Positions 1 to 57,596 are shown, counted from the stretch's first letter. The stretch: DNA of 64,000 nucleotides from an uncultured Eubacteriales bacterium (GCA_964607705.1 CAZSLI010000004.1:15750-79749); one strand, 5' to 3'. Program-made: numbers and translations. The notes: generated by a model not told the origin, from the letters alone.

Positions 1-1070
1 CCGTGACACGAGAAGCACGCGGCCGCGTACGTGCCTTGCGTCTGGTCGGTCGCGAGCGTGCTCTGCGTCGTGGGCCGGTACTGCGCCACAAGCCCGTCGT
101 AGGCACTCGGTCCGCGATGCGCCGCATGACAATTCAGGCAGTCGCCCTTCGTCCGCCCTGCTGCCGAGGACGCCGGCAGTGAGCCGTGCGGGTTGGAGTC
201 AGCAAGGTACGCCGCCTCACCGGGGAAGGTGCCGAGCACGGGATAGCCCGCCGAGTTGGTCTTGGGCGCAGCCACGTCGGGATAGGGCGTCGCGCTCGTC
301 CAGCCGGACGGCTTCGCATGGCAGCTGAGACACCACGCGGTGTTTCCGCCGGCAGTGGTCCGACCCTGGATCACCGGCTGGGGGTTGCGCGGGTTCTTGG
401 CCGGGTCCAAGTGGGGGCTGTGGCAGCTGGCGCACGAGGCCGTGGTGTTGGCGGCATCGCCGGTCTCCTCGATCGAGTGACCGCTCGTCAGGGCGAAGGA
501 GTCATCGGCGCCATCGAACACGTCGTACTTGGACCCGACACCCGAGTGGCACGAGAAGCAGACGCCCGAGTCGCCCGAGGGCACGGACGCGGGCCGCGCG
601 AGCGTGCCGTCGACAGCAGCCACGTGAGTCGAATGACACTGGGCGCAGGTACGCGATCCCTCGTTGGCGGTGCCGTGGGGCGAGAGCGTGTCACGGGCAA
701 CGATGGGGCCCGCAGGGTCCGACAGCGCCGACTGTCCCTGGCCGGTGACCGCGCTTACGCGGTAGTAGTAGCTCTGCCCCTCCGAGGAGAACGTGTCCTC
801 GTAGAGCTGCTGGTCGGTCGAACCGATCAGGTAGGCACGTCCGTCAGGCATGGCTGCACGCCACACGCGGTACTCGGTGCCGTCGCTATCGGCCGTGCCC
901 GGCTCCCAGCTAACGACCGCGACCGTCGCCGTCGTATCGCCGGGCCGCGCTGTCACGTTCACGGGCACGTCGGCGCCCAGACCTGCGCGCGCCTGAGCGA
1001 CCGCAAAGGCCGCCCCGCCGACCAGCAGAAGTGCCCCGAGCATCATGGCGAGGGCGAAACGGTTCTGCAC
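1..1070 (-). CDS. Secreted multiheme cytochrome c with N-terminal fibronectin type III domain (3' end truncated by window edge)
   Basis: Manual minus-strand translation from GTG at 1070 is open to the edge: signal-like MQNRFALAMMLGALLLVGGAAFAVAQARA, FN3-like segment (VVSWEP...EYRVWR...YYYRVSAV), then CAQCH (633-647), CFSCH (546-560), CASCH (420-434), CLSCH (318-332), CLNCH (126-140), CFSCH (3-17). Not in the ORF track because it has no stop in the window. Confidence 0.9.
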   Translation of the reverse strand, partial: MQNRFALAMMLGALLLVGGAAFAVAQARAGLGADVPVNVTARPGDTTATVAVVSWEPGTADSDGTEYRVWRAAMPDGRAYLIGSTDQQLYEDTFSSEGQSYYYRVSAVTGQGQSALSDPAGPIVARDTLSPHGTANEGSRTCAQCHSTHVAAVDGTLARPASVPSGDSGVCFSCHSGVGSKYDVFDGADDSFALTSGHSIEETGDAANTTASCASCHSPHLDPAKNPRNPQPVIQGRTTAGGNTAWCLSCHAKPSGWTSATPYPDVAAPKTNSAGYPVLGTFPGEAAYLADSNPHGSLPASSAAGRTKGDCLNCHAAHRGPSAYDGLVAQYRPTTQSTLATDQTQGTYAAACFSCH

Positions 1071-1319
1071 GGTGACGACTGACGGTGGCAACGACGTCGA
1101 GCGGACGGACTCTATGAGGATCCCGATAGCGCGGGAGACTTGGTTTCGCGTGTTCACGATACGCGCGTTAGTGCAGGAGGCATGCCATGGCGGCCACATG
1201 AGAAGACCCACACAATTCGTCCACACCGCAACAATCTGAGGACAGGGGTCCAACGGCCCGCCGTACCGGTGGGGTATGAACGCAATGAGTCCGCCCGACA
1301 TCCGAAAGGGGCTTTCGTC

Positions 1320-2111
1320 ATGCCGCTTCCCCAGGTGGGCGAACAGGCCCCTTCACTCTCTCTGCCGAGCCATCTCGGAGACATCGTCAGCCTTGATGAA
1401 CTGCGCGGAAAGAACATCGTGATCGCGTTCTTCCCTCTCGCATTCACTCCCGTTTGAACCAACCAGATCCCCTCGTACGAGCAGGCGCTCAGCCGCTTCG
1501 AGGGGATGAACACCCAGGTCATGGGTGTGAGCGTTGACCATGTGCCGGCGCTGATGGCGTGGGCGGAGTCCTTGGGGGGCATCAGCTTCCCGCTGCTTTC
1601 GGATTTCTGGCCGCATGGAGCTGCCGCTGAGGCGTGGGGCGTGTTCCGGCATGAGGACGGCCACTCAGAGCGAGCGTTGTTCATCCTGGATGCAGAAGGC
1701 ATCGTTCGGTACGTGGACGTCCACGACATCGCCGACCAGCCCGATAACGAGACGCTCTTCGCCGAGCTGGCCAAGCTGGAACCCGAGTCGGCCGGCCGCC
1801 TCCTCGCTGCAGAGTCGTCCCCCCAGACCGGATCCGATGCACCCGTGTCCCCCGACCGACAGGAGACCTTGTCCGACGGGGTGCTGATGTACTGCCGCTC
1901 ATGGTGTCCCGACTGTCGGCGCGCCCGCGACTGGCTCGACCGCGAGGGCATCTCCTACGTCGAGATAGATGTTGATCAGGACGCCGTGGCGCGTGAAAGG
2001 GCCGCCTCTCACAACGAAGGCCGACTCCACACACCGACCTTCGAGATCGGCGAAGAGGTGTGCGTCGATTTCCAGCCACAACGCATCAGGCAGCTCCTCG
2101 ACATGATGTGA
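1320..2111 (+). CDS. Selenocysteine-containing AhpE-type peroxiredoxin fused to a glutaredoxin domain (Sec at codon 46)
   Basis: ORFs 1140-1457 and 1506-2111 are in one frame, separated only by TGA 1455-1457, which falls at the peroxidatic Cys position (FFPLAFTPV-U-TNQ; later SDFWPHG, SERALFILD). C-terminal Grx domain with WCPDC. Confidence 0.88.
1469..1505 (+). promoter_or_regulatory. Putative bacterial SECIS element
   Basis: CCCCTCG (1469-1475) pairs with CGAGGGG (1499-1505); apical GAGC-AGGC-GCTC hairpin; stem starts 11 nt after the UGA; loop GG at +27/+28. Confidence 0.75.
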
Positions 2112-2312
2112 CTCCCGATAGGGGAAGACGCGCCCATCACAGCTGAGGAGCCATTCACCGCCCGCGCGAGACAAGCCGCTCACGGCGTTCCTGCAGCCAC
2201 TCGCGAAGTTACCGCGGGTTAGTTGCTAGTACCACGGCTTACCCACTGGAATATCCCGCGCTCCGCTGGCACAATGGCGGCAGAATGATGCGGACTGCGG
2301 CGAGGGGGCGGC

Positions 2313-2894
2313 ATGAGCAAGAAGGCACGCGGGGAAGGCCGAGCAAGAGACGACGCCCATAACCCGAGCGATTTCGCTCTCCAGTCGTACGGTCGCGCGG
2401 TCAACTACCTATCGCGAAGCTACCAGTCGTATCTCGACACCGTGACTGCCCCCTACGGCGTCTCAAGCGCCCACGTCCCGCTACTCGTCTACCTTTGGGA
2501 GGGTAACTCCGGAGAGACGCAGAACGAGATCGCTCGCGCGCTCGGCGTGGACAAGGGAACGATATCCCGGAACGTACAGGCCCTACTGCGGCTCGGCCTG
2601 GTGACGCAGACCGAGTGTACGCGCGACTCCCGCGCCTGCACCGTGGACCTCACCGATGAGGGCCGTCGCCTCTCACAGCCCATCGGCAAGATGTCCGATG
2701 ACTGGGCCGCGGGCGTGACAGGCCACCTCTCGGAGGAGGACCGTGTGCGCGTGCTGGCGGACCTGCAGTCGATGATCGTCCGGTCGGACGCGCTCATCCA
2801 GGGTGCCAAGGCAGCTCACGCCGGCATGGCGGCCGCGAGCTTCGTGGACGCTTCCGTGCCCGACATCACCGCGCAGGCGGTCGAGACGGTCTAA
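2313..2894 (+). CDS. MarR family transcriptional regulator
   Basis: wHTH pattern TQNEIARALGVDKGTISRNVQALLRLGLV...D.R...V.LT.EG. Confidence 0.88.
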   Translation: MSKKARGEGRARDDAHNPSDFALQSYGRAVNYLSRSYQSYLDTVTAPYGVSSAHVPLLVYLWEGNSGETQNEIARALGVDKGTISRNVQALLRLGLVTQTECTRDSRACTVDLTDEGRRLSQPIGKMSDDWAAGVTGHLSEEDRVRVLADLQSMIVRSDALIQGAKAAHAGMAAASFVDASVPDITAQAVETV

Positions 2895-3265
2895 CTCTCC
2901 TGCTCGGACTCTCCGGCCGCACCGTCTGTGCGGTCGTCCGACGCGGGTGCACCAGTCTGGGGCGCATCGGCTGACAGCGGCTCGCGCGCCGGTTCCGACG
3001 CGCCCGTACCGGGCAGCAGACCTGCAGCGTACTTGACTGCCGTCATCGAGCCGAAGGCGGCGCCCAGCCAAGCATCGGCAGCCAACGCCTCCCCACCGAC
3101 AGCGGCCTGGAACGCCATGTAGGTGCAGACCAGAAAGCATCCCGCCACGCCGATGAACCATGCGATGCCGTGAAGCTTGAGGCGACGACCCACGACCCAG
3201 CCCACGACGGCGCCTGCTGTGAGGCCGCCGAACGTCGATGCTATGACCGCGGCAGTCTGGTTCAC
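2891..3265 (-). CDS. Small membrane protein, unknown function
   Basis: About 3 hydrophobic segments; GTG start overlaps the upstream stop (GTGA coupling). Confidence 0.6.
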   Translation of the reverse strand: MNQTAAVIASTFGGLTAGAVVGWVVGRRLKLHGIAWFIGVAGCFLVCTYMAFQAAVGGEALAADAWLGAAFGSMTAVKYAAGLLPGTGASEPAREPLSADAPQTGAPASDDRTDGAAGESEQES

Positions 3266-4203
3266 GCTGTGATGGCCCCTGCCCGAGCGGACGGGTCGAC
3301 GCCTGCTGCGACCCGGGCCTGTTCGTCTGCGTAGAGCAACCACAAAGCCTGCGTACCGAGTTCGGAGCCGCCCGACTGCTCAAGGAGCTGGTAGAGCCGC
3401 TTCGCCAGCTCGAGTCCCGGCAGCGCCGCCCCTCGCTCGTCCGCCTCGGCGATCGCGATGCGCAGGTCCTTCACGAAGTGCTTCACGAAGAAGCCGGGCG
3501 CAAGGTCGCCGGACAGGATCCTCGGCGCGAGATTGGTGAGCGACCACGAGGCAGCCGAGCCCGCTGAGACGGACGCGAGAACCTTGGCACGATCGAGACC
3601 AGCCGCTTGGGCATACGCGAGCATCTCCACGGTCGCCAGCATGGAGCCGGCGATCGCCACCTGGTTGGCCATCTTGGCGTGTTGGCCCGCGCCCGGTCCG
3701 CCCTGCAGCACGATGCTCTTGCCGAGTACCTCGAACACCGGGACGGCCGCTTCGAAGTCTGCCTCGGCGCCGCCTACCATGATGGTGAGCGTGGCGTTCC
3801 GGGCCCCCACGTCGCCACCCGAGACCGGTGCGTCGAGCATCCTGAGGCCTCGCTGCGCGGCCTCCTCGGCGATGCGCGTCGCCAATCCCGGCGACGAGGT
3901 CGTCATGTCGATGAGAAGGCTGCCCTTGGCGGCGTTGTCCAGGATGCCGTCCACCCCGAGGTAGACCTCCTCCACATCGCTGGGATAGCCAACCATGGTG
4001 ATGACGACATCTGCCTCGTGCGCCGCCGCGCCGGGGCTGTCGGCCCACGCGGCTCCTGCAGCGATCAGGGCCTCGGCCTTCGCTCGAGTGCGGGAGTAGA
4101 CGGTCAGCTCGTGGCCGGCGCGCAGCAGGTGCCCAGCCATGGACGTGCCCATGACTCCCGTGCCGATGAATGCTATCCGTCTCGGGCTGATGTCACTCGG
4201 CAT
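3262..4203 (-). CDS. NAD(P)-dependent oxidoreductase, 3-hydroxyisobutyrate/tartronate semialdehyde reductase family
   Basis: IAFIGTGVMG Rossmann motif, DAPVSGG, GQHAKMANQ, FFVKHFVKDL. Confidence 0.9.
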   Translation of the reverse strand: MPSDISPRRIAFIGTGVMGTSMAGHLLRAGHELTVYSRTRAKAEALIAAGAAWADSPGAAAHEADVVITMVGYPSDVEEVYLGVDGILDNAAKGSLLIDMTTSSPGLATRIAEEAAQRGLRMLDAPVSGGDVGARNATLTIMVGGAEADFEAAVPVFEVLGKSIVLQGGPGAGQHAKMANQVAIAGSMLATVEMLAYAQAAGLDRAKVLASVSAGSAASWSLTNLAPRILSGDLAPGFFVKHFVKDLRIAIAEADERGAALPGLELAKRLYQLLEQSGGSELGTQALWLLYADEQARVAAGVDPSARAGAITA

Positions 4204-5095
4204 GTCGTGTCCTTTCGTGGGGGCCGGGCTGAAGAACCGGCGGTGAGACGAGATCTACGCGTGTGTAGGCGACGCGAAAGCCGAGACGCTCCATGTTTCG
4301 CTGGGAGCCGCTGCCCGGTGATGATTCGGTCACAGCCAACTCGCATCCCCTCTCCGCACCGAGCTTCAGCCGCGCCAGCTGCAACGCACGCTGCACCCCG
4401 CGTCGGCGAAACTCCGGGAGCGTGGCGTCGGCCGACAACCAGGCGATGCTGTCTTGCACGTAGAGTTCGCCGGTCCCGGCGGGGCGGCCATCGACGAACG
4501 CCATGAGCAAGGTCGTGCCGGGCCGGTCCGCGACGACGCGGGACAGCGCCAAGTGCGAAGCCGGTGGTTCGAGCGGCGCCGAGAACCCGACCGCAGCGAC
4601 GTGTGCCCATACGGCGCGTCCTTCGTCGGTATCGATCACGCGAATGTCCACGTCCGACTGCACATCCACTAGTCTGTCATGCGCCTCGTAGGCGCGCACG
4701 AGCACGTTCTCGAAGCCATCGAGCCTCCACCCGAGGTCCGCCATCCGGAGCAACAGACTGCGATCGACGAACGGCGAGAGAACGGCAACGCCTTGCTGCT
4801 CCCGGTCGGCGTAGAACGAGTGGAGCGCTCGTGCGTCCTCGGCGGTGACCGCGGTTGACTGCAGGCCCAGGCCGATAGCCTGGTTCACCGGCGAGCCTTC
4901 GCCGAGGTACACCGCGACGCCGCCGGCCACCTCGAGAAGCGCCGCATCGGAGTACGGATCGCTGGCGCGGGCGGTCTCGACGAAACGCCGCATCTCCTCG
5001 GCGGAAAGCGCCTCAAGACGAGACGTGAGCGCGTGATCGGCGAACTGATGCAACGACCCTCCCGAAGCCAATCCCCTGTCGTCGTAGGGTACCAT
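4193..5095 (-). CDS. GNAT family N-acetyltransferase
   Basis: ATLPEFRRRGVQRAL acetyl-CoA motif and SQRNMERLGF; start set at ATG 5095. Confidence 0.82.
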   Translation of the reverse strand: MVPYDDRGLASGGSLHQFADHALTSRLEALSAEEMRRFVETARASDPYSDAALLEVAGGVAVYLGEGSPVNQAIGLGLQSTAVTAEDARALHSFYADREQQGVAVLSPFVDRSLLLRMADLGWRLDGFENVLVRAYEAHDRLVDVQSDVDIRVIDTDEGRAVWAHVAAVGFSAPLEPPASHLALSRVVADRPGTTLLMAFVDGRPAGTGELYVQDSIAWLSADATLPEFRRRGVQRALQLARLKLGAERGCELAVTESSPGSGSQRNMERLGFRVAYTRVDLVSPPVLQPGPHERTRHAE

Positions 5096-5147
5096 TTGCC
5101 CCGGCTCCCGAAGTGCGGGGAGGCAGCCAGGCCGGAAGGACGCGCTC

Positions 5148-5861
5148 GTGCCCGAAATGAGCGAGGAACAGCAGGTAGCAGTCGGCGCGGGAAGGCCCAA
5201 GCGAAGGCTGTCGAGGGGCGCCATCGTGGGGATCGGCATCGCCGTCGCGGTCGTCATCGGCTTCGCGGCGCTGACCGTTTGGGCGCTGGGGCGCTCGAGT
5301 GGCACGCCGGGCGGGTTCGCCGAGCAGCAGAGCGCTTGGTCCTCGGCGATGGCGAAGGCGGGCGTCGAAGCGACCTACCCTGCCGGACCCGTCGATGTCA
5401 CGAAGGTGCGCGCAACGGGATCGCACCCGTTCTCGGCGACGTTCACCGCCGAGGAAGTGAGCGCTCTGCTCGCGGTCTACCGCTTCTCGACCGAGTCGGC
5501 GGGAGCGAAAGTCGGACTCAAGCGCGCGCAGGTGGGGTTCCCCGAGGCGGGCGTAGCGCAGATCGACGCCACCATGCGCGTGGACGACTCGTCGTACTCG
5601 GCGAAGGCTCTCGCGCCGGTCGTCTTCGAGAACGGCCGCGTGCGCCTGTCGAAGAGCGGTGCCGAGGCGTCGGTCGAGGGCTTCAAGCTCAAGGGCGGGC
5701 AGCTCGGCCAGCTCGTGAGCGTGACCGAGTCCTACCTCAACGACTTCATCGCCGCGGCGCCCGGCCTGCGCATCGAGTCGGCGCGCATCGTGAATGGCGG
5801 CATCGAGATGACCGGCACGGCGCCGACTCGCATCGAGAACCCCTCACCTATCCCCGAGTAG
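5148..5861 (+). CDS. Membrane-anchored protein of unknown function (one N-terminal TM, beta-rich outer domain)
   Basis: Basic patch, then AIVGIGIAVAVVIGFAALTVWAL; codon usage consistent with a real gene. Confidence 0.65.
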   Translation: MPEMSEEQQVAVGAGRPKRRLSRGAIVGIGIAVAVVIGFAALTVWALGRSSGTPGGFAEQQSAWSSAMAKAGVEATYPAGPVDVTKVRATGSHPFSATFTAEEVSALLAVYRFSTESAGAKVGLKRAQVGFPEAGVAQIDATMRVDDSSYSAKALAPVVFENGRVRLSKSGAEASVEGFKLKGGQLGQLVSVTESYLNDFIAAAPGLRIESARIVNGGIEMTGTAPTRIENPSPIPE

Positions 5862-5876
5862 CGATCGCCCGGCGGC

Positions 5877-6458
5877 CTAGTTCCCGGCGTGCAGCCGCTC
5901 CATGACCCACGCCATGTTCTCGCCGAGCCGGGTCATCGTGCGCATGCCCTCGGCGTCCTCGGCGACCTCACCCTTCTCCCGGCCGATACCGATGTTCCAG
6001 TAGCTCGAGCCGACCACGATCATCTCGCTGATCAGGAAGAAGTGGTTGATCGTGTCGAAGGCGTGCATGGCTCCGGCGCGGCGAACGGCGATGACGGCTG
6101 CCCCCGGCTTGCGCTGCAGCAGCTCGGGACGCGAGCGGGCGACGTAACCGGCGCGGTCGATGAGCGCCTTCATCTCCGCGGAGACGTCGGCGAAATACGT
6201 GGGGCTACCCAGCAGCACCGCGTCGGCGGCGAAGATCGAGGCGATGATGTCGTTGCCCGCATCGCGGCGGCCATGGCAGGCGCCGTCACCTATCTCGCGA
6301 CACTTGCCGCATGCCGTGCAGCCGCGCACCTCGCGGCCGCCGATCTCGATGAGCTCACAGTCGTGGCCGGCTGCCTGCAGCGGCGCCAGCGCCTCCTGAA
6401 GCAGGCGGGCGGTGTTGCCACCACGGCGGGCCGATCCGGAAACGGCGACGACTTTCAT
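5877..6458 (-). CDS. Flavodoxin family / iron-sulfur flavoprotein (NADPH-dependent FMN reductase fold)
   Basis: MKVVAVSGSARRGGNT, GCTACGKC...C Cys motif, GSPTYF, KALIDR; AGGAG RBS. Confidence 0.88.
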   Translation of the reverse strand: MKVVAVSGSARRGGNTARLLQEALAPLQAAGHDCELIEIGGREVRGCTACGKCREIGDGACHGRRDAGNDIIASIFAADAVLLGSPTYFADVSAEMKALIDRAGYVARSRPELLQRKPGAAVIAVRRAGAMHAFDTINHFFLISEMIVVGSSYWNIGIGREKGEVAEDAEGMRTMTRLGENMAWVMERLHAGN

Positions 6459-6546
6459 CGGCATGACTCCTGAGTACGAGCGGACGGGGCGGCCAATTCG
6501 GCGCACTCCACTGTACCTGCGACGTGCCCGGGCGGGAAAGCGTAGG

Positions 6547-7068
6547 TCAGGGCGTAGTCTCACCCGCGGGCTCGGCCGGCAGCACATCAGCCTTCTCGGG
6601 CGCAATGAGCGCCAGCCAGAAGACGCGGTCGGCGATGAGCAGCGCGGTCCCGATGCCGATGTAGAGCGCACCCAGGATCCCGGCGCCGATGACGCCCGGA
6701 TGCACGACGAGGTTCCGGATGAGGATGCCGCCGCCCATCATGAGGGCGACCAGCCCCCAGGAACGCGCCGAAAAGAAGCCGAAGAAGCAGGCGCGGCCGC
6801 GTTGCCTGATGCGAGCGACGGCCTTGGTGGCTATCCGGTCCAGGAGGTAGCGCGACTTCACGACGCCCAAGGCGAGCGCGATGCCGAGAACCCACGCGTG
6901 CCAGTAGCGGCCACTCACGTAGCCGGTTCCACGAACCAGCAGGATCCCGGCACCGACCATCCACATGAGCGCCGCAGCGGCCAGCTGCACCTTCACGCCG
7001 GCACGCGGCGTGAACCGGCTGCCGGAGCGGGGCGTGGCCGCGGTGATGTCGTTCGTTGAGTCAGTCAT
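6547..7068 (-). CDS. Conserved membrane protein (about 4 TM)
   Basis: Hydrophobic helices, CFFGFFSARSWGLVALMM motif; AAGGTGG RBS before ATG 7068. Confidence 0.65.
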   Translation of the reverse strand: MTDSTNDITAATPRSGSRFTPRAGVKVQLAAAALMWMVGAGILLVRGTGYVSGRYWHAWVLGIALALGVVKSRYLLDRIATKAVARIRQRGRACFFGFFSARSWGLVALMMGGGILIRNLVVHPGVIGAGILGALYIGIGTALLIADRVFWLALIAPEKADVLPAEPAGETTP

Positions 7069-7199
7069 GCCCCACCTTAAAGCAGACGGCGTGCCGACGG
7101 TCGCGTGCCACCTTACACGATGCGCGTTCCACTCCCACGCGAAGCAGCATCGGCCGTGGCGGGAATATCGCATGCGTCGGCTGGCACCGCAGCGACGCC

Positions 7200-7238
7200 A
7201 AGGGTATGTTATGCGATACGGCGGCAATTCTATGCAGT
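7200..7238 (+). promoter_or_regulatory. Possible degenerate tandem ARG boxes
   Basis: TATGCG (7210) and TATGCA (7231) half-sites repeat with a 21-nt period upstream of the arcE-like/arcC pair; left half-sites match poorly. Confidence 0.3.
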
Positions 7239-7277
7239 CGGTGTCAGCCCGAGCCGAGCGTTCAGGGGAGGAGCATC

Positions 7278-8633
7278 ATGCCAGCGTCAGAGAACAACAC
7301 CCGACGCGTGATCGTCATGGGAGCAGCAGGTCGCGACTTTCATGACTTCCTCGTCGCGCTGCGCGACGATGACTCGGTCGAGGTGGTGGCGTTCACCGCG
7401 ACGCAGATTCCCGGCATCGATGGTCGCACCTTCCCCGCCGCGCTGGCCGGACCTCGCTATCCCGGCGGCATCGAGATCTATCCCGAAACCGAACTTGCGC
7501 GGCTCATCGCGGAGCTGGACGCCGACGAGGTCGTGTTCGCCTATTCCGACGTCGCTCACACGGACCTCATGCATAAGGCCTCGCTCGTCCTCGCCCACGG
7601 CGCTGACTTCCGGCTCATCGGCCCCAAGCGTTCGATGATCGAGTCGACCAAGCCCGTCATCAGCGTCTGCGCGGTGCGCACCGGCGTGGGCAAGTCGGGG
7701 CTCTCGAGGCGCGTCTTCGAACACCTGACCGCCCGCGGTCTGCGCGTGGTCGATGTTCGCCACCCCATGCCCTACAGGGACCTGACCGCGATGGCCGTCG
7801 AACGCTATGCCAGCATCGAAGATCTCGATCGCCTCGGCGTCACCGTCGAGGAGCGCGAAGAGTACGAACCGCTGATCGAGATCGGCGGCATCGTGATGGC
7901 CGGCGTCGACTACGAGGCCATTCTGCGGGCGGCAGAGGCCGAGGCCGACGTCATCGTCTGGGACGGCGGAAACAACGACTGGCCCTTCTTCAAGTCGGAC
8001 CTTGAGATCGTGGCGCTCGACCCCCACCGGGTGGGGCATGAGCGCGCGTACTACCCGGGCGAGGTCAACTTCTTGCGTGGCGACGTCCTCGTGATCAACA
8101 AGGTCGACACCGCCGAGCCGGACAAGGTCGAGGAGCTCGTCGCCACCGCGCGGCGTTTCAACCCGGGCGCGACCCTCATCCGCACCGCCCTCGACATCCA
8201 TGCCGACGATGACGATCTGATGCGCGGCAAGATGGTACTCGCGGTCGAGGATGGCCCGACGGTCACCCACGGCGGCATGCCGTACGGCGCCGCAGCGTTG
8301 TCCGCCGAGAACGGCGGGGCGGCGGGCCTCGTCGATCCCACCCCGTACGCCGTCGGCTCGCTCAAGGACACGTTCAAGGCGTACCCGCATATGACCAAAG
8401 TACTGCCGGCCATGGGATACTCCCCCGAGCAGTTGGCCGACCTCGAGGCCACGATCAACGCGACCCCCTGCGATGTCGTCGCCATCGGCACGCCGATCGA
8501 CTTGGCACGCCTCATCCACATAGACAAGCCTCACGTGCGCATCAACTACGACGTAAAGGACGCTGGTATGCCTACGCTCGACGACGTGCTGGACAGATTC
8601 TTGAATGAGCAGGGAGTCCTCGGTGATAGCTGA
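7278..8633 (+). CDS. COG2403 P-loop protein (cyclic 2,3-diphosphoglycerate synthase-like); probable arginine synthetase ArcE
   Basis: MGAAGRDFHDF, AFTATQIP, AVRTGVGKS P-loop, RHPMPY, EEREEYEP, WDGGNND, VEDGPTVTHGGM; overlaps the carbamate kinase gene. Confidence 0.78.
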   Translation: MPASENNTRRVIVMGAAGRDFHDFLVALRDDDSVEVVAFTATQIPGIDGRTFPAALAGPRYPGGIEIYPETELARLIAELDADEVVFAYSDVAHTDLMHKASLVLAHGADFRLIGPKRSMIESTKPVISVCAVRTGVGKSGLSRRVFEHLTARGLRVVDVRHPMPYRDLTAMAVERYASIEDLDRLGVTVEEREEYEPLIEIGGIVMAGVDYEAILRAAEAEADVIVWDGGNNDWPFFKSDLEIVALDPHRVGHERAYYPGEVNFLRGDVLVINKVDTAEPDKVEELVATARRFNPGATLIRTALDIHADDDDLMRGKMVLAVEDGPTVTHGGMPYGAAALSAENGGAAGLVDPTPYAVGSLKDTFKAYPHMTKVLPAMGYSPEQLADLEATINATPCDVVAIGTPIDLARLIHIDKPHVRINYDVKDAGMPTLDDVLDRFLNEQGVLGDS

Positions 8634-9573
8634 GCTCGGTACGCTCGTCATCGCACTCGGCGGCAACGCCATCGCCCGCTCGGGCGACGATGGCTCCCTT
8701 GAGGCACAGTACGTCCGCGCCCGGGAGGCCATGGCCAGCGTTGCCGACCTCCTGTGCGCCGGAGCTCACATCGTCATCACGCACGGAAACGGTCCTGTCG
8801 TGGGCAATATCGTCCTGCGATGCGAACTTGCCAGCGATCACGTTCCACCCATGCCGCTCTACATCGCGGGCGCGGACTCCGAGGGCGGCATCGGCCTGAT
8901 GCTCCAGCAGACCCTCGGCAACGAACTGCGTCGCCGAGACTGCCCGCATCCGGTCGCCGCGATAGTCACGCAGGTCGTCGTTGACGAGGCCGATCCAGCC
9001 TTCGAGCGCCCCACCAAGCCGATCGGCGGCTACTACACCGATGCCGACGCCGATCGGCTCCGGTCTGAAGCCGGCTGGAGCATGGCCCGTCAACACGACG
9101 GTCGCTACCGGCGAGTAGTCCCCTCCCCGCGCCCGAAGCGCGTGGTGGAAGTAGAGGCTGTACAGGCGATGATGGCGGCCGGCGTCATCCCGATCACCGC
9201 GGGAGGCGGAGGCGTACCGGTCACCGAGGACGCGGACGGCATGTACGCCGGTTGCGACGCCGTCATCGACAAGGACTGGACGAGCGCGGTCCTTGCCCAC
9301 CAGCTCGATGCCGCGCGGCTCTACATACTGATGGAGACCGACGCCGTCTACCTTGACTGGGGCACGCCCGAGCAGCGCGCCCTGGAGAGCATCACGCCGG
9401 ATGAAGCCGACCACCTGGTCGCGTCGGGACAGCTCGCCGAGGGCTCGATCGCGCCGAAGGTCGCCGCGGCCGCCTGGTTCGCGCGGACCACAGGCCGTCG
9501 TGCGACGCTCTGCCGGACCGAGGACCTGCTCGCAGCTGTCGAGGGTCGGTGCGGGACCCGGATCGAGGGCTGA
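8623..9573 (+). CDS. arcC: Carbamate kinase
   Basis: VIALGGNAI, THGNGP, PTKPIG, YRRVVPSPRP, GGGGVPV, AVIDKD, GSIAPKV. Confidence 0.93.
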   Translation: MIAELGTLVIALGGNAIARSGDDGSLEAQYVRAREAMASVADLLCAGAHIVITHGNGPVVGNIVLRCELASDHVPPMPLYIAGADSEGGIGLMLQQTLGNELRRRDCPHPVAAIVTQVVVDEADPAFERPTKPIGGYYTDADADRLRSEAGWSMARQHDGRYRRVVPSPRPKRVVEVEAVQAMMAAGVIPITAGGGGVPVTEDADGMYAGCDAVIDKDWTSAVLAHQLDAARLYILMETDAVYLDWGTPEQRALESITPDEADHLVASGQLAEGSIAPKVAAAAWFARTTGRRATLCRTEDLLAAVEGRCGTRIEG

Positions 9574-9585
9574 GCCGGTCAGCGG

Positions 9586-9601
9586 TGTGACCGATGTCAC
9601 A
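9586..9601. promoter_or_regulatory. CRP-family binding site
   Basis: Perfect TGTGA-ccgatg-TCACA in the intergenic region upstream of ORF 9688. Confidence 0.75.
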
Positions 9602-9687
9602 TGAATCGTGAAGTGAACGATGGAGCGGCGGCCGTGTTGCGCCGAACCTGACTACACGACCCGAACTCTGACCGCCAAGGGACTGCC

Positions 9688-10260
9688 GTGCTGACCGCCA
9701 CCGGAAGCCTGGCGCAGGTGCGTCCGCACTATGTGGGCGACGACCGCGACCTCATGCGCGTGCTACTCAATGCCACCTCGACCGCCGAGGCGAACCTTGC
9801 CCTCGATGTGCTGCGCGGCACAGTGCCCGAGAAGGTGCTCGTGAACGCGTGCAACCTGCGCGAAGTGCTGCTGTCTCTCCCCGCGTCCCCCTTCGCCATG
9901 CGGGTCGACGAGGAGACACTCGTGAAGACGGCCGGCCTCAAGCGGGGCATGGCGACGATGAGCAAGATCCTCTCCGATGGAACCGAACTCGTGGTGACCA
10001 CCGCAGGCAACCTCGTGCTCGACGTCATCGTTCGCCGAGACGGCGAGAAGTACTTCTGGAACCAGGTCCCGGTGACCGAGGACTACGTGACCGGTAGCGT
10101 CTTGGATCTGTGCATCGAGAGCGACTGTCTGCTGGACGCAGTGGTCGACCTCGCTCACTGCATGGGGATGGTCTTCAACCCGAAGTTCTACCTGTCGCTC
10201 GAGGACTGGTCTCTCGACCACGCCTTCGACCTCTTCGAAGGCCTTGAGGGCCTGTTCTGA
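9688..10260 (+). CDS. Hypothetical protein
   Basis: 190-aa ORF with normal composition that fills the gap between convergent genes; no recognisable motif. Confidence 0.7.
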   Translation: MLTATGSLAQVRPHYVGDDRDLMRVLLNATSTAEANLALDVLRGTVPEKVLVNACNLREVLLSLPASPFAMRVDEETLVKTAGLKRGMATMSKILSDGTELVVTTAGNLVLDVIVRRDGEKYFWNQVPVTEDYVTGSVLDLCIESDCLLDAVVDLAHCMGMVFNPKFYLSLEDWSLDHAFDLFEGLEGLF

Positions 10261-10288
10261 CGCGACCGCCCCTGATCGGCCTTCCCGC

Positions 10289-10903
10289 TTAGGCGACCTC
10301 GGCCATGCTCGTGATCGTGCACCCTGCGCTCGCCATGGCCTGAAGCGCCCTTTCACCGTCTCCCCTGACGGCGTCGACCGCTCGCACCCCATCAGCCACC
10401 ACTGCCACCTCGAACCCCAGGCTGCGCGCATCGAGCGCCGAGTACTTCACGCAGTAGTCGGTGGCCAGCCCCACGATGACCACTCCCTGCACGCCGCGGT
10501 CGGCGAGTATCGCGGAGAGTCCCGTGTCGCAACGCCTGGCGTTGTCGAAGAAAGCCGAGTACGAATCCACTAGGGGATCGGTGCCCTTGCGGATCACCGC
10601 ATCTATGTGTGCGACGTCGAGGGCAGAGTGGAATGAGGCACCCGGCATGTTCTGGACGCAGTGATCGGGCCACAAGACCTGTTCGGTCCCCGCCAGGTCG
10701 ATCGTTTGCCCGGGCTGTCTGCCCATGTGGTTGCTCGCGAAGCTGCCATGATCGGACGGGTGCCAGTCCTGCGTCGCGACCACGAACTCAAAATCGGGCG
10801 CGAGGTGGTTGGCGACTGCCACCGCCGCTTCGCCATCGCGTACGGGCAGCGAGCCGAACGGCATGAAGTCGTTCTGAAGATCGATCAGCAGCAGTGCGCG
10901 CAT
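10289..10903 (-). CDS. pncA: Nicotinamidase/pyrazinamidase
   Basis: LLLIDLQNDF, TQDWHP, WPDHCVQ, KG...DSYSAF, GLATDYCV. Confidence 0.93.
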   Translation of the reverse strand: MRALLLIDLQNDFMPFGSLPVRDGEAAVAVANHLAPDFEFVVATQDWHPSDHGSFASNHMGRQPGQTIDLAGTEQVLWPDHCVQNMPGASFHSALDVAHIDAVIRKGTDPLVDSYSAFFDNARRCDTGLSAILADRGVQGVVIVGLATDYCVKYSALDARSLGFEVAVVADGVRAVDAVRGDGERALQAMASAGCTITSMAEVA

Positions 10904-10907
10904 GATC

Positions 10908-12443
10908 TCACGTCCCCTCCGTTTGTCGGCGTGAAGTCGCCGCTTCCGCAGCCGCGAGGGCATCTCCGCTGGGCAACGCCTCTTCGGGCGTGATGCCGCG
11001 CGCCTTGAGCACGAGGGCGGTCCTCAGGTCGTTCAAGCGCCTCTCGAGGCCCACGGGATACCTGTGGGGATTGATGAAGCGTGTGACTGAGGGATCCAGC
11101 TCCTCGAGTCCGGCCCGTGCGCGGTCGTGGACTTCGCGCAGGCCGGGCGTTTCCCACGTCAGGTCGCCCTGCCTGAAGACCGGCTGCAGCAACTCCTCGG
11201 CAGTGTGCGATGAGGTGAAGGTCTTGCGTCGCGTCGGGTCTTCCGGATCGACCATCATGGCCTCTAGCGGGCCCGGATGCCCGAGGTCGTAGATCATGTC
11301 GCCCGCAAGAGACCCGTCGACCCGTCGATACCGCCGGACGCCGAGGACGCCGGGCGTGGTCACCTTCGCAGTCTGCTCGGATACCTTTACGCGAGGAATC
11401 CAGTCTCCGCCCGGCCGGCGAACGGCCGACAGCTTGTAGACGCCACCCAACGCCGGCTGCTCCCAGCCCGTGACAAGCTTCGTGCCGACGCCCCAGACGT
11501 CGATGCGGGCACCCTGGTCCTTCAGCGAAGCGATCAGGTGCTCGTCGAGCTCGTTGCTGGCGACCACGAGAGCTTTGGGGAACCCGCCCGCATCAAGCAT
11601 CCTTCGCACCTGCGTCGAGAGCCATGCGAGGTCTCCCGAGTCGATCCTCACGCCGAGCAACTCGTGGCCGCGCTCGCGAAGCCTTCGCCCCGCGGCCATC
11701 GCACGCTCGACCCCTTCCAGGGTGTCGTAGGTGTCCACGAGGAAGGTGACGTTGTTCGGCAACGCCTGAGCGTAGGCCTCGAACGCCTCGAGCTCGGTAT
11801 CGAAGGCCATGACCCATGAGTGCGCATGGGTCCCGGCTACCGGGATGCCATGCATCTGGCCGGCGAGGGTGTTCGAGGTCGAGTCGACGCCCCCAACATA
11901 AGCGGCCCTGCTTGCGGACAGCCCCCCGTCCGGTCCCTGCGCCCGCCTCAGGCCGAACTCGAGCAGGCGGTCCCGGCCGGCAGATAGGCGGCAGCGCGCA
12001 GCCTTGGTCGCGATGAGGGTCTGGAAGTTGATCGTGTTGAGCAATGCCGTCTCCACCAACTGACACACCGGCAGAGGGCCGCGGACCCGCATCAGCGGTT
12101 CTCGCGGGAAGACCACCGTGCCCTCGGCGATGGCATCGACGTCGCACGAGAACTCGAGCGAGCGCAGCGACTGCAGGAACTCGGCGGAGAACAGGCCCGC
12201 GCCGTCGGCGCCGCGCATCTGCGCGAGATATGCGGCGTCTTCCTCGGTGAACCTCAACTGCCGCAACCACTCGACGGCCTGCTGTAATCCGGCGGCGACC
12301 GTGAAGCCGCCGCCGAATGGGTTCTCCCGGAAATACAGATGGAAGCAGCCCTCGGTCTCGGCGATACCCGCGTGCATATATGCCTGCGCCATCGTGAGCT
12401 GGTACAGGTCGGTACTCATGGCCGATGCCGTCGAGACGAACAC
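10908..12443 (-). CDS. pncB: Nicotinate phosphoribosyltransferase
   Basis: TDLYQLTM, LEFGLRRAQG, GTHAHSWV, LVDTYDTL, GVRIDSGDL, WGVGTKL. Confidence 0.95.
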   Translation of the reverse strand: MFVSTASAMSTDLYQLTMAQAYMHAGIAETEGCFHLYFRENPFGGGFTVAAGLQQAVEWLRQLRFTEEDAAYLAQMRGADGAGLFSAEFLQSLRSLEFSCDVDAIAEGTVVFPREPLMRVRGPLPVCQLVETALLNTINFQTLIATKAARCRLSAGRDRLLEFGLRRAQGPDGGLSASRAAYVGGVDSTSNTLAGQMHGIPVAGTHAHSWVMAFDTELEAFEAYAQALPNNVTFLVDTYDTLEGVERAMAAGRRLRERGHELLGVRIDSGDLAWLSTQVRRMLDAGGFPKALVVASNELDEHLIASLKDQGARIDVWGVGTKLVTGWEQPALGGVYKLSAVRRPGGDWIPRVKVSEQTAKVTTPGVLGVRRYRRVDGSLAGDMIYDLGHPGPLEAMMVDPEDPTRRKTFTSSHTAEELLQPVFRQGDLTWETPGLREVHDRARAGLEELDPSVTRFINPHRYPVGLERRLNDLRTALVLKARGITPEEALPSGDALAAAEAATSRRQTEGT

Positions 12444-20651: not shown

Positions 20652-20735
20652 ATGACTCCCTGACGACTTCACAAGTCAGGCGTGAATCGGTCCGAAAACC
20701 GACACAGCAAGTCAATCGCACACTGGGAGAACGCC

Positions 20736-22781
20736 GTGAAAGTCGTACCGCCCCGCCTGCTTTCCTTTCTGCTCGCCACGATCCTCTGCACCGCCTCGCT
20801 CGGCCCTCTCTCTTCGGCAGCCTCAGCCCAGACGGCTGATTCGTCAGTGATCGCGTCGCTCGGAAGGCAGTCGTCCGGCGCCGATGCCGTCTCGCTGATG
20901 GGCGATCGCATCGATGTGGTCGCCGCCGCCCACGGCAAGTCATCGGCCGAACTGAAGCGCGCGCTGAAGGAGGATCGCAGCCTCAAGGTCGACCCCAAGG
21001 GCCACCTCTTCTACGAGGAGGCCGCCCTGCCCGCCGACCTCGCCGCGGCGGCCGCCGAACCCGTCAACCCCTGGGCCGGCGCACTCTTCCCTCTCGATCA
21101 GACATTCAGCCTGCACAGCAAGCCGGGTTCAAAGCGCGTCATCTACATCGACGTGGACGGGCACACGCTCTCGAACACCGCTTGGAACGGCGGCACCGTC
21201 CCCAATCCGCTCGTCTGCACGCCGTGGGACACCGACGGCAATCCCAGCTCGTTCTCCGACGCCGAGCGCACGAAGGTCCAGCAGGTGTGGCAGCGCGTGG
21301 CCGAGGACTACGCCCCCTTCGACGTGGACGTCACCACTCAGGATCCCGGGGCGGCCGCGATGACGCGCGACAGTCTCGCAGACGAGTACTACGGCGTCCG
21401 CGTTCTCATCACGCCGATGAGCAGCTACTTCGGTGGCGCCGGCGGCCGAGCGTTCGTCGGCGTCTTCGACTCGACAGGGGATGCGTACAAGCCGGCGCTG
21501 ATCTTCCCCGAGAAGTTGGCTAACGGTGAGAAGTACGTCGCAGAAGCGTGCTCCCACGAGGCCGGCCACACCCTCGGCCTGCTCCATGACGGAACGACGT
21601 CGGGCGCCGAGTACTACCAGGGCCACGGGACCGGCGAGACCGGCTGGGCGCCCATCATGGGCAGCGGCTACTACAAGCCGGTCACGCACTGGAGCAAGGG
21701 CGAATACCCCCTCGCGAACAACCAGGAAGACGACCTCGCGATCATCAACCAGAACGGCGCCGTCTACCGAGCCGATGACATGGGCGGCTCCTCTGCCACC
21801 CCTCACATGCTGGCAGCGGGCTCCACGCTCTCGTCCCAGGGGGTGATCGAGCGCACGGGAGACGTGGACGTCGTGTCGTTCGCTGCTGGTAGCGGTCCCG
21901 CGACGATCACCGTGCTGCCGGCTCTTCTCGGCGGCGACCTCGATGTGTCGCTTGAGCTGCGCGACGCGTCCGGAGCGCTCGTTGCCAGCGCCAATCCTGC
22001 CGAGACGCTCGGCGCGAGCCTGACGGCGAACCTGAGCGCAGCCACGTACTACCTCTCGGTGACGGGCACCGGCAAGGGCGACCCGCTCAGCACAGGCTAT
22101 TCCGCGTACGCATCCCTCGGCGCGTGGCGGCTCAGCGGCGCCGTGGCCGACCCGGGTGTCGTCGCCCCCGGCCCCAACACCCCGCCTACGGCCGTCATCG
22201 CACAGAGTGGCGCCGGCCCCGCCGCGCCGGTCTCGGTCACTCTCGACGGCTCGGGATCGACGGACCCCGACGGATCCATCGCCTCGTGGGCGTGGGAACT
22301 CGGTGACGGCGGCACGGCGTCCGGCTCCATCGTGACCCACACGTACACCCAGGCCGGCAGGTACACGGTGAGACTGACCGTGACGGATAACCAAGGCGCC
22401 GTCGGGACCGAGACGTATGTCGTGGACGTCCCCGTGCCAGCCGTGCCGAGTATGCACGTGAGTTCCGTGACGATCGCCGTGACGTCGACGAAGTCTGGAA
22501 AGATCGCAAGGGCCATCGTGAAGGTCGTCGACGCACAGGGGGCGCCCGTGAGCGCCGCGACGGTCGTCGGCAGCTGGGGCGGCATCATGACCGGAACGGG
22601 CACAGGAACCACCGGCTCCGACGGGGCCGCCGTCATCACGAAGTCCTTCAAGAAGTCGGGCACCGTGACGTTCGTGGTGTCCCAAGTGTCCAAGGCGGGT
22701 TGGGCGTACGACTCGGCGTCCAACACCAGTGCGAACGCCGCCGCGCTGAGGATCGGGCCTCGCGCTCGAGCGCTCCGTTAG
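20736..22781 (+). CDS. Secreted metzincin zinc metalloprotease with PPC-like and PKD domains
   Basis: Signal peptide, HEAGHTLGLLH, Met-turn APIMG, PKD motif (LDGSGSTDPDG, WELGDG, HTY..AG.Y.V.LTVTD). Confidence 0.88.
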   Translation: MKVVPPRLLSFLLATILCTASLGPLSSAASAQTADSSVIASLGRQSSGADAVSLMGDRIDVVAAAHGKSSAELKRALKEDRSLKVDPKGHLFYEEAALPADLAAAAAEPVNPWAGALFPLDQTFSLHSKPGSKRVIYIDVDGHTLSNTAWNGGTVPNPLVCTPWDTDGNPSSFSDAERTKVQQVWQRVAEDYAPFDVDVTTQDPGAAAMTRDSLADEYYGVRVLITPMSSYFGGAGGRAFVGVFDSTGDAYKPALIFPEKLANGEKYVAEACSHEAGHTLGLLHDGTTSGAEYYQGHGTGETGWAPIMGSGYYKPVTHWSKGEYPLANNQEDDLAIINQNGAVYRADDMGGSSATPHMLAAGSTLSSQGVIERTGDVDVVSFAAGSGPATITVLPALLGGDLDVSLELRDASGALVASANPAETLGASLTANLSAATYYLSVTGTGKGDPLSTGYSAYASLGAWRLSGAVADPGVVAPGPNTPPTAVIAQSGAGPAAPVSVTLDGSGSTDPDGSIASWAWELGDGGTASGSIVTHTYTQAGRYTVRLTVTDNQGAVGTETYVVDVPVPAVPSMHVSSVTIAVTSTKSGKIARAIVKVVDAQGAPVSAATVVGSWGGIMTGTGTGTTGSDGAAVITKSFKKSGTVTFVVSQVSKAGWAYDSASNTSANAAALRIGPRARALR

Positions 22782-23485: not shown

Positions 23486-23758
23486 CTCGCTCATCGCGCC
23501 GAGCGACCGCCGACGACGATGTCGCTCCCACGTGCCGTCGCTCTCTATGTGACACGCGCGCGAAAAGGAGTGAGCGCAGAGCGCGAGGAGCCGTGGATGC
23601 GACGCGTCCGCTGATGCCTCCGCCTGCATACCGGGGCGGGCGGCAACACGCGGACCGTTCGTGCGCGCTTCGAGCAGGATTCAGGCGGTCGGTCGTCGTA
23701 TCTCCCCCGTATCGGAAAGGTTCCGATGGGGCCGCTAAGCGGGGGGATCGAGACCGGC

Positions 23759-24115
23759 ATGGACACGGCGATCCTGGTATTCACGGGCTTTCTCTTGGTC
23801 GGCGGGCTACTCGGGGTCATCCTCGTGTCGCTGCCCCGCTGGATGGCGCCGCGCCACCGAAGCGAGCTGAAGTCCAGCGCATACGAATGCGGCGAGCTTC
23901 CCATCGGTGAGCCCTGGATCCGCTTCCGTGTCGCCTACTACGTCTTCGCGCTCGCCTTCGTCGTGTTCGACGTCGAGGCGGTCTTTCTCTACCCGTGGGC
24001 GGTGATCATCCGGCGTCTCGGGATTCCCGGGCTGATCGAGATGGCCGTCTTCGTCGGCATCCTGGTTCTCGGCCTCGCGTATGCGTGGCGCAAGGGGGTG
24101 CTCAAGTGGACGTAG
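23759..24115 (+). CDS. nuoA: NADH-quinone oxidoreductase subunit A
   Basis: YECGE, YYVFALAFVVFDVEAVFLYPW, WRKGVLKW; alternative start at 23726. Confidence 0.95.
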   Translation: MDTAILVFTGFLLVGGLLGVILVSLPRWMAPRHRSELKSSAYECGELPIGEPWIRFRVAYYVFALAFVVFDVEAVFLYPWAVIIRRLGIPGLIEMAVFVGILVLGLAYAWRKGVLKWT

Positions 24116-24603
24116 AGGACAAGAGCGGCATTCTCGTCGCTCCTCTCCAACAGGTCATGAACTGGGCCCGCGGTCACTCCATGTGGCCGCTGACATTCGG
24201 CACGGCCTGCTGCGCCATCGAGATGATGAGCTGCGGCTCCCCCCGTTACGACACAGACCGCTTCGGCATCTTCTTCAGGAACTCTCCGCGCCAGGCAGAC
24301 TGCATGATCGTGGCTGGCACCATCAACCTGAAGATGGTGCCTCGGATGAAGCTGCTCTACGAGCAGATGGCGGAGCCCAAGTACGTCATCGCCATGGGCT
24401 CGTGCGCGATCGGCGGAGGACCATTCTCGTTCGGCTACAACGTCGTCAACGGTGTGGACCAAGTCATCCCGATCGACATCTACGTGCCGGGATGCCCGCC
24501 TCGGCCAGAAGCGCTCATCCACGCGCTGCTAACGCTCATGGAGAGGAACGCTGCCGGCGAACCATCGGCTGCCGAGCGTTTCGCGCAGGAGGCTGCACTG
24601 TGA
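24106..24603 (+). CDS. nuoB: NADH-quinone oxidoreductase subunit B
   Basis: FGTACCAIEMM, SPRQAD, MGSCAIGGG, YVPGCPPRPEAL. Confidence 0.95.
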   Translation: MDVEDKSGILVAPLQQVMNWARGHSMWPLTFGTACCAIEMMSCGSPRYDTDRFGIFFRNSPRQADCMIVAGTINLKMVPRMKLLYEQMAEPKYVIAMGSCAIGGGPFSFGYNVVNGVDQVIPIDIYVPGCPPRPEALIHALLTLMERNAAGEPSAAERFAQEAAL

Positions 24604-27433: not shown

Positions 27434-27882
27434 TCGGCATGGCGAAGGGGATGTTGACCACCCTCAAGCACGCCTTCCGGCCGGCGTTCACGACGCGCTA
27501 TCCCTGGGGGCCCGTTACCCTCCCCGAACGCAGTCGGACGTCGTTCGCTCTCCCACTCGGCGAAGACGGTCTCCCGCTGTGCAAGGCATGCAACCTCTGC
27601 GCGAAGAGCTGTCCTGATGCAGCGATCGTGCTCGAATCGGAGAAGCGCGCCGACGGACCGGGCCGGGTGCTCACGTCGTTCAAGATCGATCTCGGCCTGT
27701 GCATGTACTGCGGCATCTGCGTCGAGAACTGCCCGTCCTCGGGACTTCATCACACCGGTGACTTCGAGACTGCCACGCACCTGAGGGATGACACGATGCT
27801 CGTGTTGTTCGAGGCCCCGGGCGCGACTGCCCCCGCCGAGGACTCGGCCGGCAAGGCACCCGTCGCAGAGGAGGCGTCATGA
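27430..27882 (+). CDS. nuoI: NADH-quinone oxidoreductase subunit I
   Basis: CKACNLCAKSCP and CMYCGICVENCP. Confidence 0.95.
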   Translation: MIGMAKGMLTTLKHAFRPAFTTRYPWGPVTLPERSRTSFALPLGEDGLPLCKACNLCAKSCPDAAIVLESEKRADGPGRVLTSFKIDLGLCMYCGICVENCPSSGLHHTGDFETATHLRDDTMLVLFEAPGATAPAEDSAGKAPVAEEAS

Positions 27883-28690: not shown

Positions 28691-28692
28691 CG

Positions 28693-32078: not shown

Positions 32079-32081
32079 TAG

Positions 32082-33551: not shown

Positions 33552-33567
33552 GAGGAAGGAGGGCCGC

Positions 33568-57531: not shown

Positions 57532-57596
57532 ACCTCCGCGGCAAGGCTACCCTAGCCGAGCAGCCCAGCGCCAGAGCCGCCGAGTGCATCGCCTCG

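Follow-up and report, generated by a model that had tools for sequence, protein, structure and literature searches.

A predicted 11-heme cytochrome with an FN3 domain from an uncultured Coriobacteriia bacterium: its frame, its family and a possible role in electron transfer

What is encoded at the edge of a stretch of DNA when the only open reading frame (ORF) listed there may be the shadow of another? The question is raised by the left end of a 64,000-nucleotide stretch (GCA_964607705.1, CAZSLI010000004.1:15750-79749; hereafter the window, at its full length) that is catalogued under an uncultured Eubacteriales bacterium. An earlier note, made from the sequence alone, had proposed that this end carries an unannotated, extracellular multiheme cytochrome with an FN3 domain, and that its host is an actinobacterium. 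Here we describe the gene, the architecture and family of its product and the lineage of its host, and then ask what such a protein might do; is it a wire, a shuttle or a relic?

Frame, ends and host of the gene

On the minus strand, window positions 3..1070 translate as an open frame of 356 codons. This is the window part of a multiheme cytochrome gene, as judged from translation, from the G+C content of third codon positions (GC3, 0.82-0.84) and from the extension of the frame on a second contig. That contig, from a sludge metagenome (Logan contig L003; 12,186 bases), matches the window with 100% identity for 10,871 bases and adds 1,315 bases to the left of window position 1; on it, the cytochrome ORF runs 895 bases past the window edge and then ends at a normal stop. 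The expectation of the earlier note that the gene continues past the edge is thus borne out, and neither a frameshift nor a stop lies just beyond the edge on this contig. The gene is not, as that note had it, unannotated: a 697-residue product called from an ATG at 1199 (P0012) is on record for the 150,942-base source contig of the window in public gene sets, with precomputed Pfam hits, and NCBI/PGAP names its relatives 'cytochrome c3 family protein'.

Could the gene instead lie on the plus strand, with the CxxCH frame a chance antisense? The plus-strand ORF 186..1082 is the sole ORF in the mechanical list for this stretch; it stands there alone, however, because the list omits ORFs that run off an end. 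Five strain variants from sister metagenomes bear on the choice of strand. Read in the minus frame, three are synonymous and two conservative (A>T, D>E), whereas four of the five are non-synonymous in the plus ORF, which is therefore a shadow, as the earlier note had held and as GC3 also indicates. The same variants suggest that purifying selection acts on the minus frame. Additionally, the plus ORF is rich in Arg and Gly, as is typical of antisense frames in high-GC DNA, and it is the minus frame that has Pfam hits at curated thresholds, more than 100 homologs and a confident structure model. A plus-strand gene is in effect refuted. For annotation, this means that the gene at the left edge is real, lies on the minus strand and encodes a cytochrome, and that the antisense ORF should not be reported in its place.

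The start codon is uncertain. We prefer a GTG at 1070 to the alternatives, a TTG at 1091 and the ATG at 1199 that public gene callers took; no Shine-Dalgarno sequence stands ahead of any of the three. The 43-codon extension upstream (1071-1199) has a GC3 of 0.77, an intermediate and ambiguous value, and with a start at ATG 1199 the hydrophobic segment described below could serve as a signal anchor. Between the cytochrome gene and a divergently transcribed peroxiredoxin gene lies an intergenic region (1071..1319) that presumably holds the promoters of both; no sigma-70 consensus match was found in it, and a 1-base insertion at 1269 in one strain fits non-coding DNA. At the other end of the gene, on L003, an unrelated NYN/LabA-like gene follows. 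The cytochrome gene is kept in three sludge samples.

Whose gene is it? The window has a G+C content of 66.7%, and its GatB is 83-86% identical to proteins labelled Coriobacteriia bacterium at NCBI, the upper value (86%) being reached with Coriobacteriia metagenome-assembled genomes (MAGs). Together with genes for DUF2469 and PASTA proteins in the window and with the Actinomycetota relatives of the cytochrome, this identifies the host as an uncultured member of the Coriobacteriia (Actinomycetota) from (anaerobic) sludge, so that the proposal of an actinobacterial host was sound.

Heme chain, FN3 domain and family

The product, of ~650 residues, is probably a c-type cytochrome exported by Sec, with heme attachment predicted. 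Its parts follow one another in the order signal peptide, one FN3 domain, a 9-heme core, a tenth heme, a 74-residue linker of low complexity rich in Ala, Thr and Ser (residues 571-644) and an eleventh heme. The signal peptide (990..1070, minus strand), of Sec type or else an uncleaved signal anchor, was read from the sequence and from a hydropathy scan, in which it is the single hydrophobic segment and lies at the N-terminus. It runs M/V-QNRFALAMMLGALLLVGGAAFAVAQA with RAG following the predicted cleavage site, and has a positive n-region, a hydrophobic core and an AxA site (AQA before R); neither a twin-arginine motif nor a lipobox Cys is present in it.

The FN3 domain (693..974, minus strand; residues 76-169 of the 697-residue form) falls below the sequence threshold of its Pfam family and is recognized by its fold. 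The Pfam fn3 model returns E 9e-4 and 19.9 bits against a cut-off of 25, below the gathering score, whereas the seven-strand beta-sandwich of the fold is found: residues 80-167 of the AlphaFold2 (AF2) model form a beta-sandwich with a predicted local distance difference test score (pLDDT) of ~90, and a Foldseek search with the model matches FN3 domains of titin, myomesin and Clostridium thermocellum with E down to 8.6e-6 and a probability of 1.00. A profile search of the PDB matches the region to the C. thermocellum Fn3-like protein 3mpc (E 2.7e-8), and a hidden Markov model (HMM) of the FN3 domains of the cytochrome family described below scores 1.3e-36 on the cytochrome.

Six CxxCH motifs lie within 215 residues of the window part, CxxCHxxH alternating strictly with plain CxxCH. 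In translation, all on the minus strand, they are CAQCH(STH) at 633..647, CFSCH at 546..560, CASCH(SPH) at 420..434, CLSCH at 318..332, CLNCH(AAH) at 126..140 and CFSCH at 3..17. Six is far beyond chance, for which an estimate from residue frequencies gives ~0.003 CxxCH in 356 residues. Motifs 7-11, the 74-residue insert and the stop codon lie outside the window, at L003 10858-11766, so that extending the sequence leftwards to count hemes, as the earlier note had advised, brings the number of CxxCH motifs in the full ORF to 11 (residues 185, 214, 256, 290, 354, 395, 444, 481, 536, 565 and 674). The Pfam domain Paired_CXXCH_1 (PF09699) matches the window part in three stretches with 42 bits against a cut-off of 20.6 (E 7.7e-11) and the full protein with 65.4 bits; NCBIfam TIGR01905 scores 37.1 against 25.2, and Cytochrome_C7 and the MtrC/MtrF II-IV domains also score in the full-length protein. 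Translation, Pfam and fold matches thus confirm what that note had read here: the six alternating motifs, the signal peptide and the FN3 domain before them. The same repeat, CxxCH(xxH) ... CxxCH, defines the 'doubled CXXCH' proteins of Geobacter, Shewanella and others; PF09699 and TIGR01905 are motif-level domains rather than functional families, however, and are uninformative on partners or location.

All 22 Cys of the mature protein lie inside CxxCH motifs, leaving none free. Thirteen His lie outside the motifs; ten of them hardly vary among 94 homologs, and two others are conserved in all the proteins that have hemes 10-11. The conserved non-motif His are therefore sufficient for every heme to be bis-His ligated. 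No CxxCK motif is present in the protein, nor any obvious open coordination site. In other words, the ligation pattern is the signature of an electron-transfer chain and not of a catalytic cytochrome.

How widespread is such a protein? A search with the single sequence returned only 8 homologs, at 37-45% identity, and a profile search 107. A scan of GTDB species genomes gave 248 relatives, nearly all from Coriobacteriia, Anaerosomatales or 'Actinomycetota' MAGs and one of them from Coriobacteriaceae sp. EMTCatB1, and an HMM search of 1.84 billion cluster representatives (50% identity) gave 350 at E<=1e-30; the 107 homologs and the 350 clusters, too, are nearly all from Coriobacteriia or Actinomycetota. 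Common to all family members is the 9-heme core, which has strong signatures outside the heme motifs (DSFxLxSGH, GYPVxGTxPG, GDCLxCHxAHxGxxxYDGL and LPxGxPxPC(Y/F)(D/E)CHN(P/A)HGSxRGN, all of them present in the window protein); the family alignment (A1) has 90 invariant columns. The window protein is 37-56% identical to family members, with E to 1e-69 for the single sequence and 1e-213 for the profile. Short forms of 9-10 hemes and ~550 residues are common and conserved, the commonest form has 19 hemes in ~1,000-1,100 residues, and giant forms have 33, 45, 56 or 74-75 CxxCH motifs in ORFs of 1,900-5,000 residues. The giants occur in other Coriobacteriia MAGs (L009, L071, L077; also L019, L020, L021, L024, L030, L039 and L063), where the ORFs are built from tandem 9-heme modules, with representatives of up to 4,629 residues and 4-11 module matches. 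An N-terminal FN3 domain is found in 34 of 109 family proteins.

The closest relative (P0018; FN3 and 19 hemes) is 56% identical over residues 79-570 of the window protein, and residues 645-693 of the window protein align with its residues 515-563. The window protein thus matches the first 11 hemes of this relative and adds the 74-residue insert; it ends four residues past the heme-11 segment and looks like a shortened form of the FN3 and 19-heme architecture. A C-terminal '...WP' or '...W' ending was considered as a motif shared with some 19-heme proteins and rejected, as BLAST places the C-terminus of the window protein inside those proteins (~515-563) and not at their ends.

Structural information on the heme chain comes from the models. 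The AF2 model of the full protein has a mean pLDDT of 75.6, with the FN3 domain and heme core confident and residues 559-697 low, and its Foldseek matches are FN3 domains only; a model of the heme core has a pLDDT of 88 and a predicted template modelling score of 0.87. MtrA is the best PDB sequence-profile match (E 3.3e-4) and the only PDB match of the heme core in Foldseek (E 0.31 over 299 columns, not significant). The profile matches to MtrA and NrfA were set aside, being marginal and driven by CxxCH spacing. The 9-heme module, which has no significant match among solved structures, may, as a speculation that we hold loosely, represent a new structural type of heme wire that is particular to monoderm Actinomycetota. 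The module serves as a building block, used once with an FN3 domain here, twice in the widespread 19-heme proteins and repeatedly, up to ~75 hemes, in polypeptides of 4,000-5,000 residues. On this speculation, proteins made of it could span or outreach the Gram-positive wall as nanowires of one molecule, an alternative to the polymerised cytochrome filaments of Geobacter, and might explain the pili-like appendages reported for Parvivirga on ferrihydrite only (PMC9686372). The nanowire cytochromes OmcS, OmcE and OmcZ of Geobacter and their archaeal homologs are likewise extracellular heme chains; they have no sequence or fold match to the window protein, and they lengthen by the stacking of subunits, whereas here tandem modules, up to 75 hemes, lie in one polypeptide.

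A proposed electron wire and the alternatives to it

What might the protein do? By analogy with better-known systems, we propose, and hold it reasonably likely, that it is a passive envelope or extracellular electron wire of Coriobacteriia with 11 hemes, exported by Sec; the analogy covers heme attachment, location in the envelope, the direction of electron flow and the partners. After export by Sec, System II (ResB/CcsA) would attach hemes to all 22 Cys, and the protein would act as a passive wire and not as an enzyme, since every heme can be bis-His ligated. Electrons would be relayed through the thick Gram-positive envelope between, on the inner side, membrane-bound cytochromes linked to quinol or to a hydrogenase or formate dehydrogenase and, on the outer side, acceptors or donors such as Fe(III) minerals, humics, electrodes or partner cells. 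Plausible roles for FN3 domain and linker are those of a spacer, or of a module that binds the wall or a substrate. The cell-surface electron-transfer protein of the earlier note stands in part, as an exported multiheme c-type cytochrome; a surface location is argued by analogy, the search for an anchor having come up empty. Respiration of metals, humics or sulfur, which that note had also suggested, would follow for this gene by analogy with cultured relatives (PMC9686372, PMC7943316); the copy in the window is without the partner genes of its relatives.

Three known systems invite comparison. MtrA/DmsE of Shewanella (PDB 6R2Q chain A; TIGR03508) is likewise an elongated chain of closely spaced bis-His hemes and acts as an insulated wire through the envelope; here, however, there is no beta-barrel partner and the host is monoderm, the FN3 domain and low-complexity linker have no counterpart in MtrA, and the window protein scores below the NCBIfam cut-off of TIGR03508 (MtrA/DmsE decaheme). 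The closest functional analogy is OcwA of Thermincola potens, a surface nonaheme terminal reductase (Costa et al. 2019, cited in PMC9686372 and PMC7943316) that is also exported by a monoderm, also has a nine-heme unit and is proposed to carry out the final step in passing electrons out of the cell across a thick wall. No OcwA chain is found among the PDB sequence-profile matches at E<=10 or among the Foldseek matches. OcwA is similar to enzymes of the NrfA type and includes hemes without bis-His ligation; in the window protein, by contrast, every heme has a candidate distal His.

The third comparison is with the cytochromes of Anaerosomatales/OPB41 and of EMTCatB1, which belong to the same class of bacteria (G+C 66.6-67.7%, against 66.7% for the window) and are predicted to be membrane-bound or surface-associated, with proposed roles in passing electrons to Fe(III) or taking them from cathodes; their genes cluster with genes for cytochrome c biogenesis and Rex (PMC9686372, PMC7943316). 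Parvivirga hydrogeniphila, an obligate Fe(III) reducer, and Anaerosoma have 17-18 multiheme cytochromes, some of them clustered in this way (PMC9686372), and multiheme cytochrome genes of EMTCatB1 are induced and highly expressed on working biocathodes (PMC7943316). A 19-heme protein of EMTCatB1 (L041) is of the same family as the window protein, at 42% identity by tblastn. The window protein differs from these forms in being short, 11-heme, FN3-bearing and alone in its neighbourhood. Multiheme cytochromes are thus already documented in Coriobacteriia (Parvivirga, Anaerosoma, EMTCatB1), and the window gene adds a member; neither paper singles out this family, the FN3 domain or the 9-heme module.

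The neighbourhoods of relatives, in which we clustered the ORFs of 80 loci, give the family a cytochrome context. A ccsA/resC gene lies beside relatives in 28 of 78 loci and resB in 17; in EMTCatB1 (L041 9908..15173) the 19-heme gene is followed directly by resB and ccsA (Pfam PF05140, PF01578). This group of 19-heme gene and resB/ccsA, often with a Rex-type regulator, stands between relA and hisS/aspS in L041 and about 28 other loci, and looks like a conserved core operon of the lineage. Other recurrent neighbours are Rex-type regulators (16 loci), two NHL-propeller families (18-20 loci), further cytochromes (11/12-heme in 22 loci, 14-heme in 21) and a Wzy_C-TPR protein (12 loci). The subfamily with FN3 and 9 hemes (L001, L004) closes a group of multiheme cytochrome genes, five or six in number, that also has TPR and NHL genes. 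Also found beside relatives are a B12-binding radical SAM protein (20 loci) and a UbiE-type methyltransferase (13 loci); with an amidohydrolase, the UbiE/MenG-type methyltransferase and the radical SAM protein lie downstream of cytochrome clusters in 13-20 loci (for example L067 19169..19897, L069 17475..19346 and L033 20021..21433) and may form a pathway for quinone modification or for a cofactor tied to the cytochromes. The 19-heme homolog of EMTCatB1 is covered by contigs in four biocathode metatranscriptomes, and in two of them its word depth is 2- to 6-fold above that of downstream genes, contig depth being a poor measure of expression.

Set beside these loci, the window copy is bare, and several points count against a wire. 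The cytochrome is solitary: the window and its 1.3-kb extension hold no second c-type cytochrome, no gene for an NHL, TPR or Rex protein and none of resB, ccsA and ccm, and the neighbours that are there (Prx-Grx, MarR, dehydrogenase, GNAT, FMN reductase and NYN) do not recur beside relatives (tblastn, 80 loci). No LPXTG, SLH, lipobox or second transmembrane segment is found in the 697-residue protein, which leaves retention at the surface unexplained. Neither Foldseek nor the PDB profile search gave the heme core a significant structural relative from which a function could be transferred. Three sample-matched metatranscriptomes, all tiny, have no contigs over window 1-6000, a result that is uninformative rather than negative. 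Finally, the shortened 19-heme architecture could be that of a degenerating paralog. A ccsA gene linked to the host through sludge contigs aligned to resB-ccsA of EMTCatB1 was rejected as a candidate, as only a W-rich motif of 60-70 bases aligns, from many organisms; one set of contigs with this motif, from the same sludge runs, has depths of 17.7/8.2/13.8 against 18/9.5/12-14.5 for the window, an agreement too weak to count.

Is the gene, then, decaying or functionless? On this account a gene for FN3 and 19 hemes was truncated, left its cluster and acquired an insertion of low complexity. The alignment with the closest relative, which covers only the first 563 residues of P0018 and leaves the A/T/S-rich insert unmatched, would suit such a history, as would the solitary context and the lack of RNA in the small metatranscriptomes just described. 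Against these stand a frame that is fully open, with all 11 motifs and all conserved distal His intact, coding-type GC3 and strain variants that are mostly synonymous; the gene is kept in three sludge samples, and short forms of 9 and 10 hemes are common in the family. We regard decay as quite improbable.

An alternative with a somewhat better claim, and still an unlikely one, is a shuttle that works within the wall zone (a periplasm-like space) and feeds a reductase of soluble substrates, such as nitrite, thiosulfate or polysulfide, in the manner of NrfB and NrfA, with no contact with insoluble or extracellular acceptors. The empty search for a surface anchor agrees with this, and there is weak similarity to NrfB (PDB 2ozy, E 0.0077; NCBIfam cyt_nit_nrfB, E 0.001) and to NrfA (E ~4e-4). 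Additionally, EMTCatB1 encodes homologs for nitrite reduction, and Anaerosoma tenue, for all its 18 multiheme cytochromes, uses sulfur and thiosulfate in respiration and not iron (PMC7943316, PMC9686372). The Nrf matches, however, lie far below family cut-offs (19-21 bits for the NrfB models, against 167-184) and are largely driven by the spacing of CxxCH, and no reductase gene lies near the cytochrome in the window. An FN3 domain with a long low-complexity linker would be unusual for a small soluble shuttle, and family members of 19 to 75 hemes suit long-range transfer better.

The wire remains the reading that we prefer, and its wider interest lies in the family, which has no solved structure and grows in modules to ~75 hemes. 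The passage of respiratory electrons through a thick Gram-positive wall is understood in very few cases, chiefly Thermincola and, with its flavin-based system, Listeria. OPB41/Anaerosomatales-type Coriobacteriia occur widely in the subsurface, sediments and digesters, and have been linked to the reduction of iron and to the uptake of electrons from cathodes. With ~650 residues, 11 hemes and one FN3 domain, the window gene is a compact and tractable representative of their main cytochrome family; by itself, being short and solitary, it offers little more than a convenient way in for experiments.

The rest of the window

Is there a respiratory chain in the window to which the cytochrome could belong? 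A complex I-like operon lies at 23615..35040 (plus strand), with nuoA, nuoB, a fused nuoCD, nuoH, nuoI, nuoJ, nuoK, nuoL and three further antiporter-type subunits (M/N); nuoE, nuoF and nuoG are absent from it, and ferredoxin or another donor is possible. The operon is 22 kb from the cytochrome gene, with unrelated genes between. A link between the two, which the earlier note had entertained by way of a quinol pool, is not supported by synteny and is doubtful, also because no respiratory quinones could be detected in Anaerosomatales in culture (PMC9686372, Table 1). A quinone link is still conceivable in view of the UbiE-type genes beside relatives and of an ABC1/UbiB-like kinase encoded in the window. 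Outside the cytochrome gene, the remaining 63 kb of the window, the operon included, are housekeeping in character (NAPRTase, DEAD helicase, gatCAB, ligA, lipoyl synthase, MTHFR, metH and homocysteine synthesis genes), and an Rfam scan of the whole window at gathering thresholds gave no match, hence no rRNA, tRNA or annotated RNA element.

Divergent from the cytochrome gene is a candidate selenoprotein gene (1320..2111, plus strand), in whose product an AhpE-like peroxiredoxin is joined to a glutaredoxin-like domain (CPDC); a MarR regulator gene (2313..2894) comes next. In the alignment, an in-frame TGA (1455-1457) falls exactly on the peroxidatic Cys of M. tuberculosis AhpE (FFPLAFTPV-TGA against FFPLAFTGIC; PDB 5id2, E 3.6e-28) and is kept in all three sludge runs. 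A stable hairpin that starts 12 nt 3' of the UGA (-26.6 kcal/mol, z -3.7) resembles a bacterial selenocysteine insertion sequence (SECIS) element. Gene callers split this gene into pieces of 45 and 196 residues.

Two putative surface proteins are encoded in the window, one of 699 residues with a PKD domain (20682..22781, plus strand) and one of 333 residues with CarboxypepD_reg and SpaA-like prealbumin folds (37747..38748, minus strand). A methionine and one-carbon block (54786..62590, minus strand) comprises MTHFR with a C-terminal partner, a UDP-GlcNAc 2-epimerase, cobalamin-dependent MetH, a NIL-ferredoxin protein, an HcyBio homocysteine-synthesis enzyme and an Rrf2 regulator, and is of a kind usual in anaerobes that make homocysteine by the sulfur-incorporation route. 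Over window 1..12000, contigs of two sister sludge samples differ from the window at ~0.3-0.5% of positions, and short spikes of high depth at ~7950-7990 and ~10840-10876 suggest small repeated elements.

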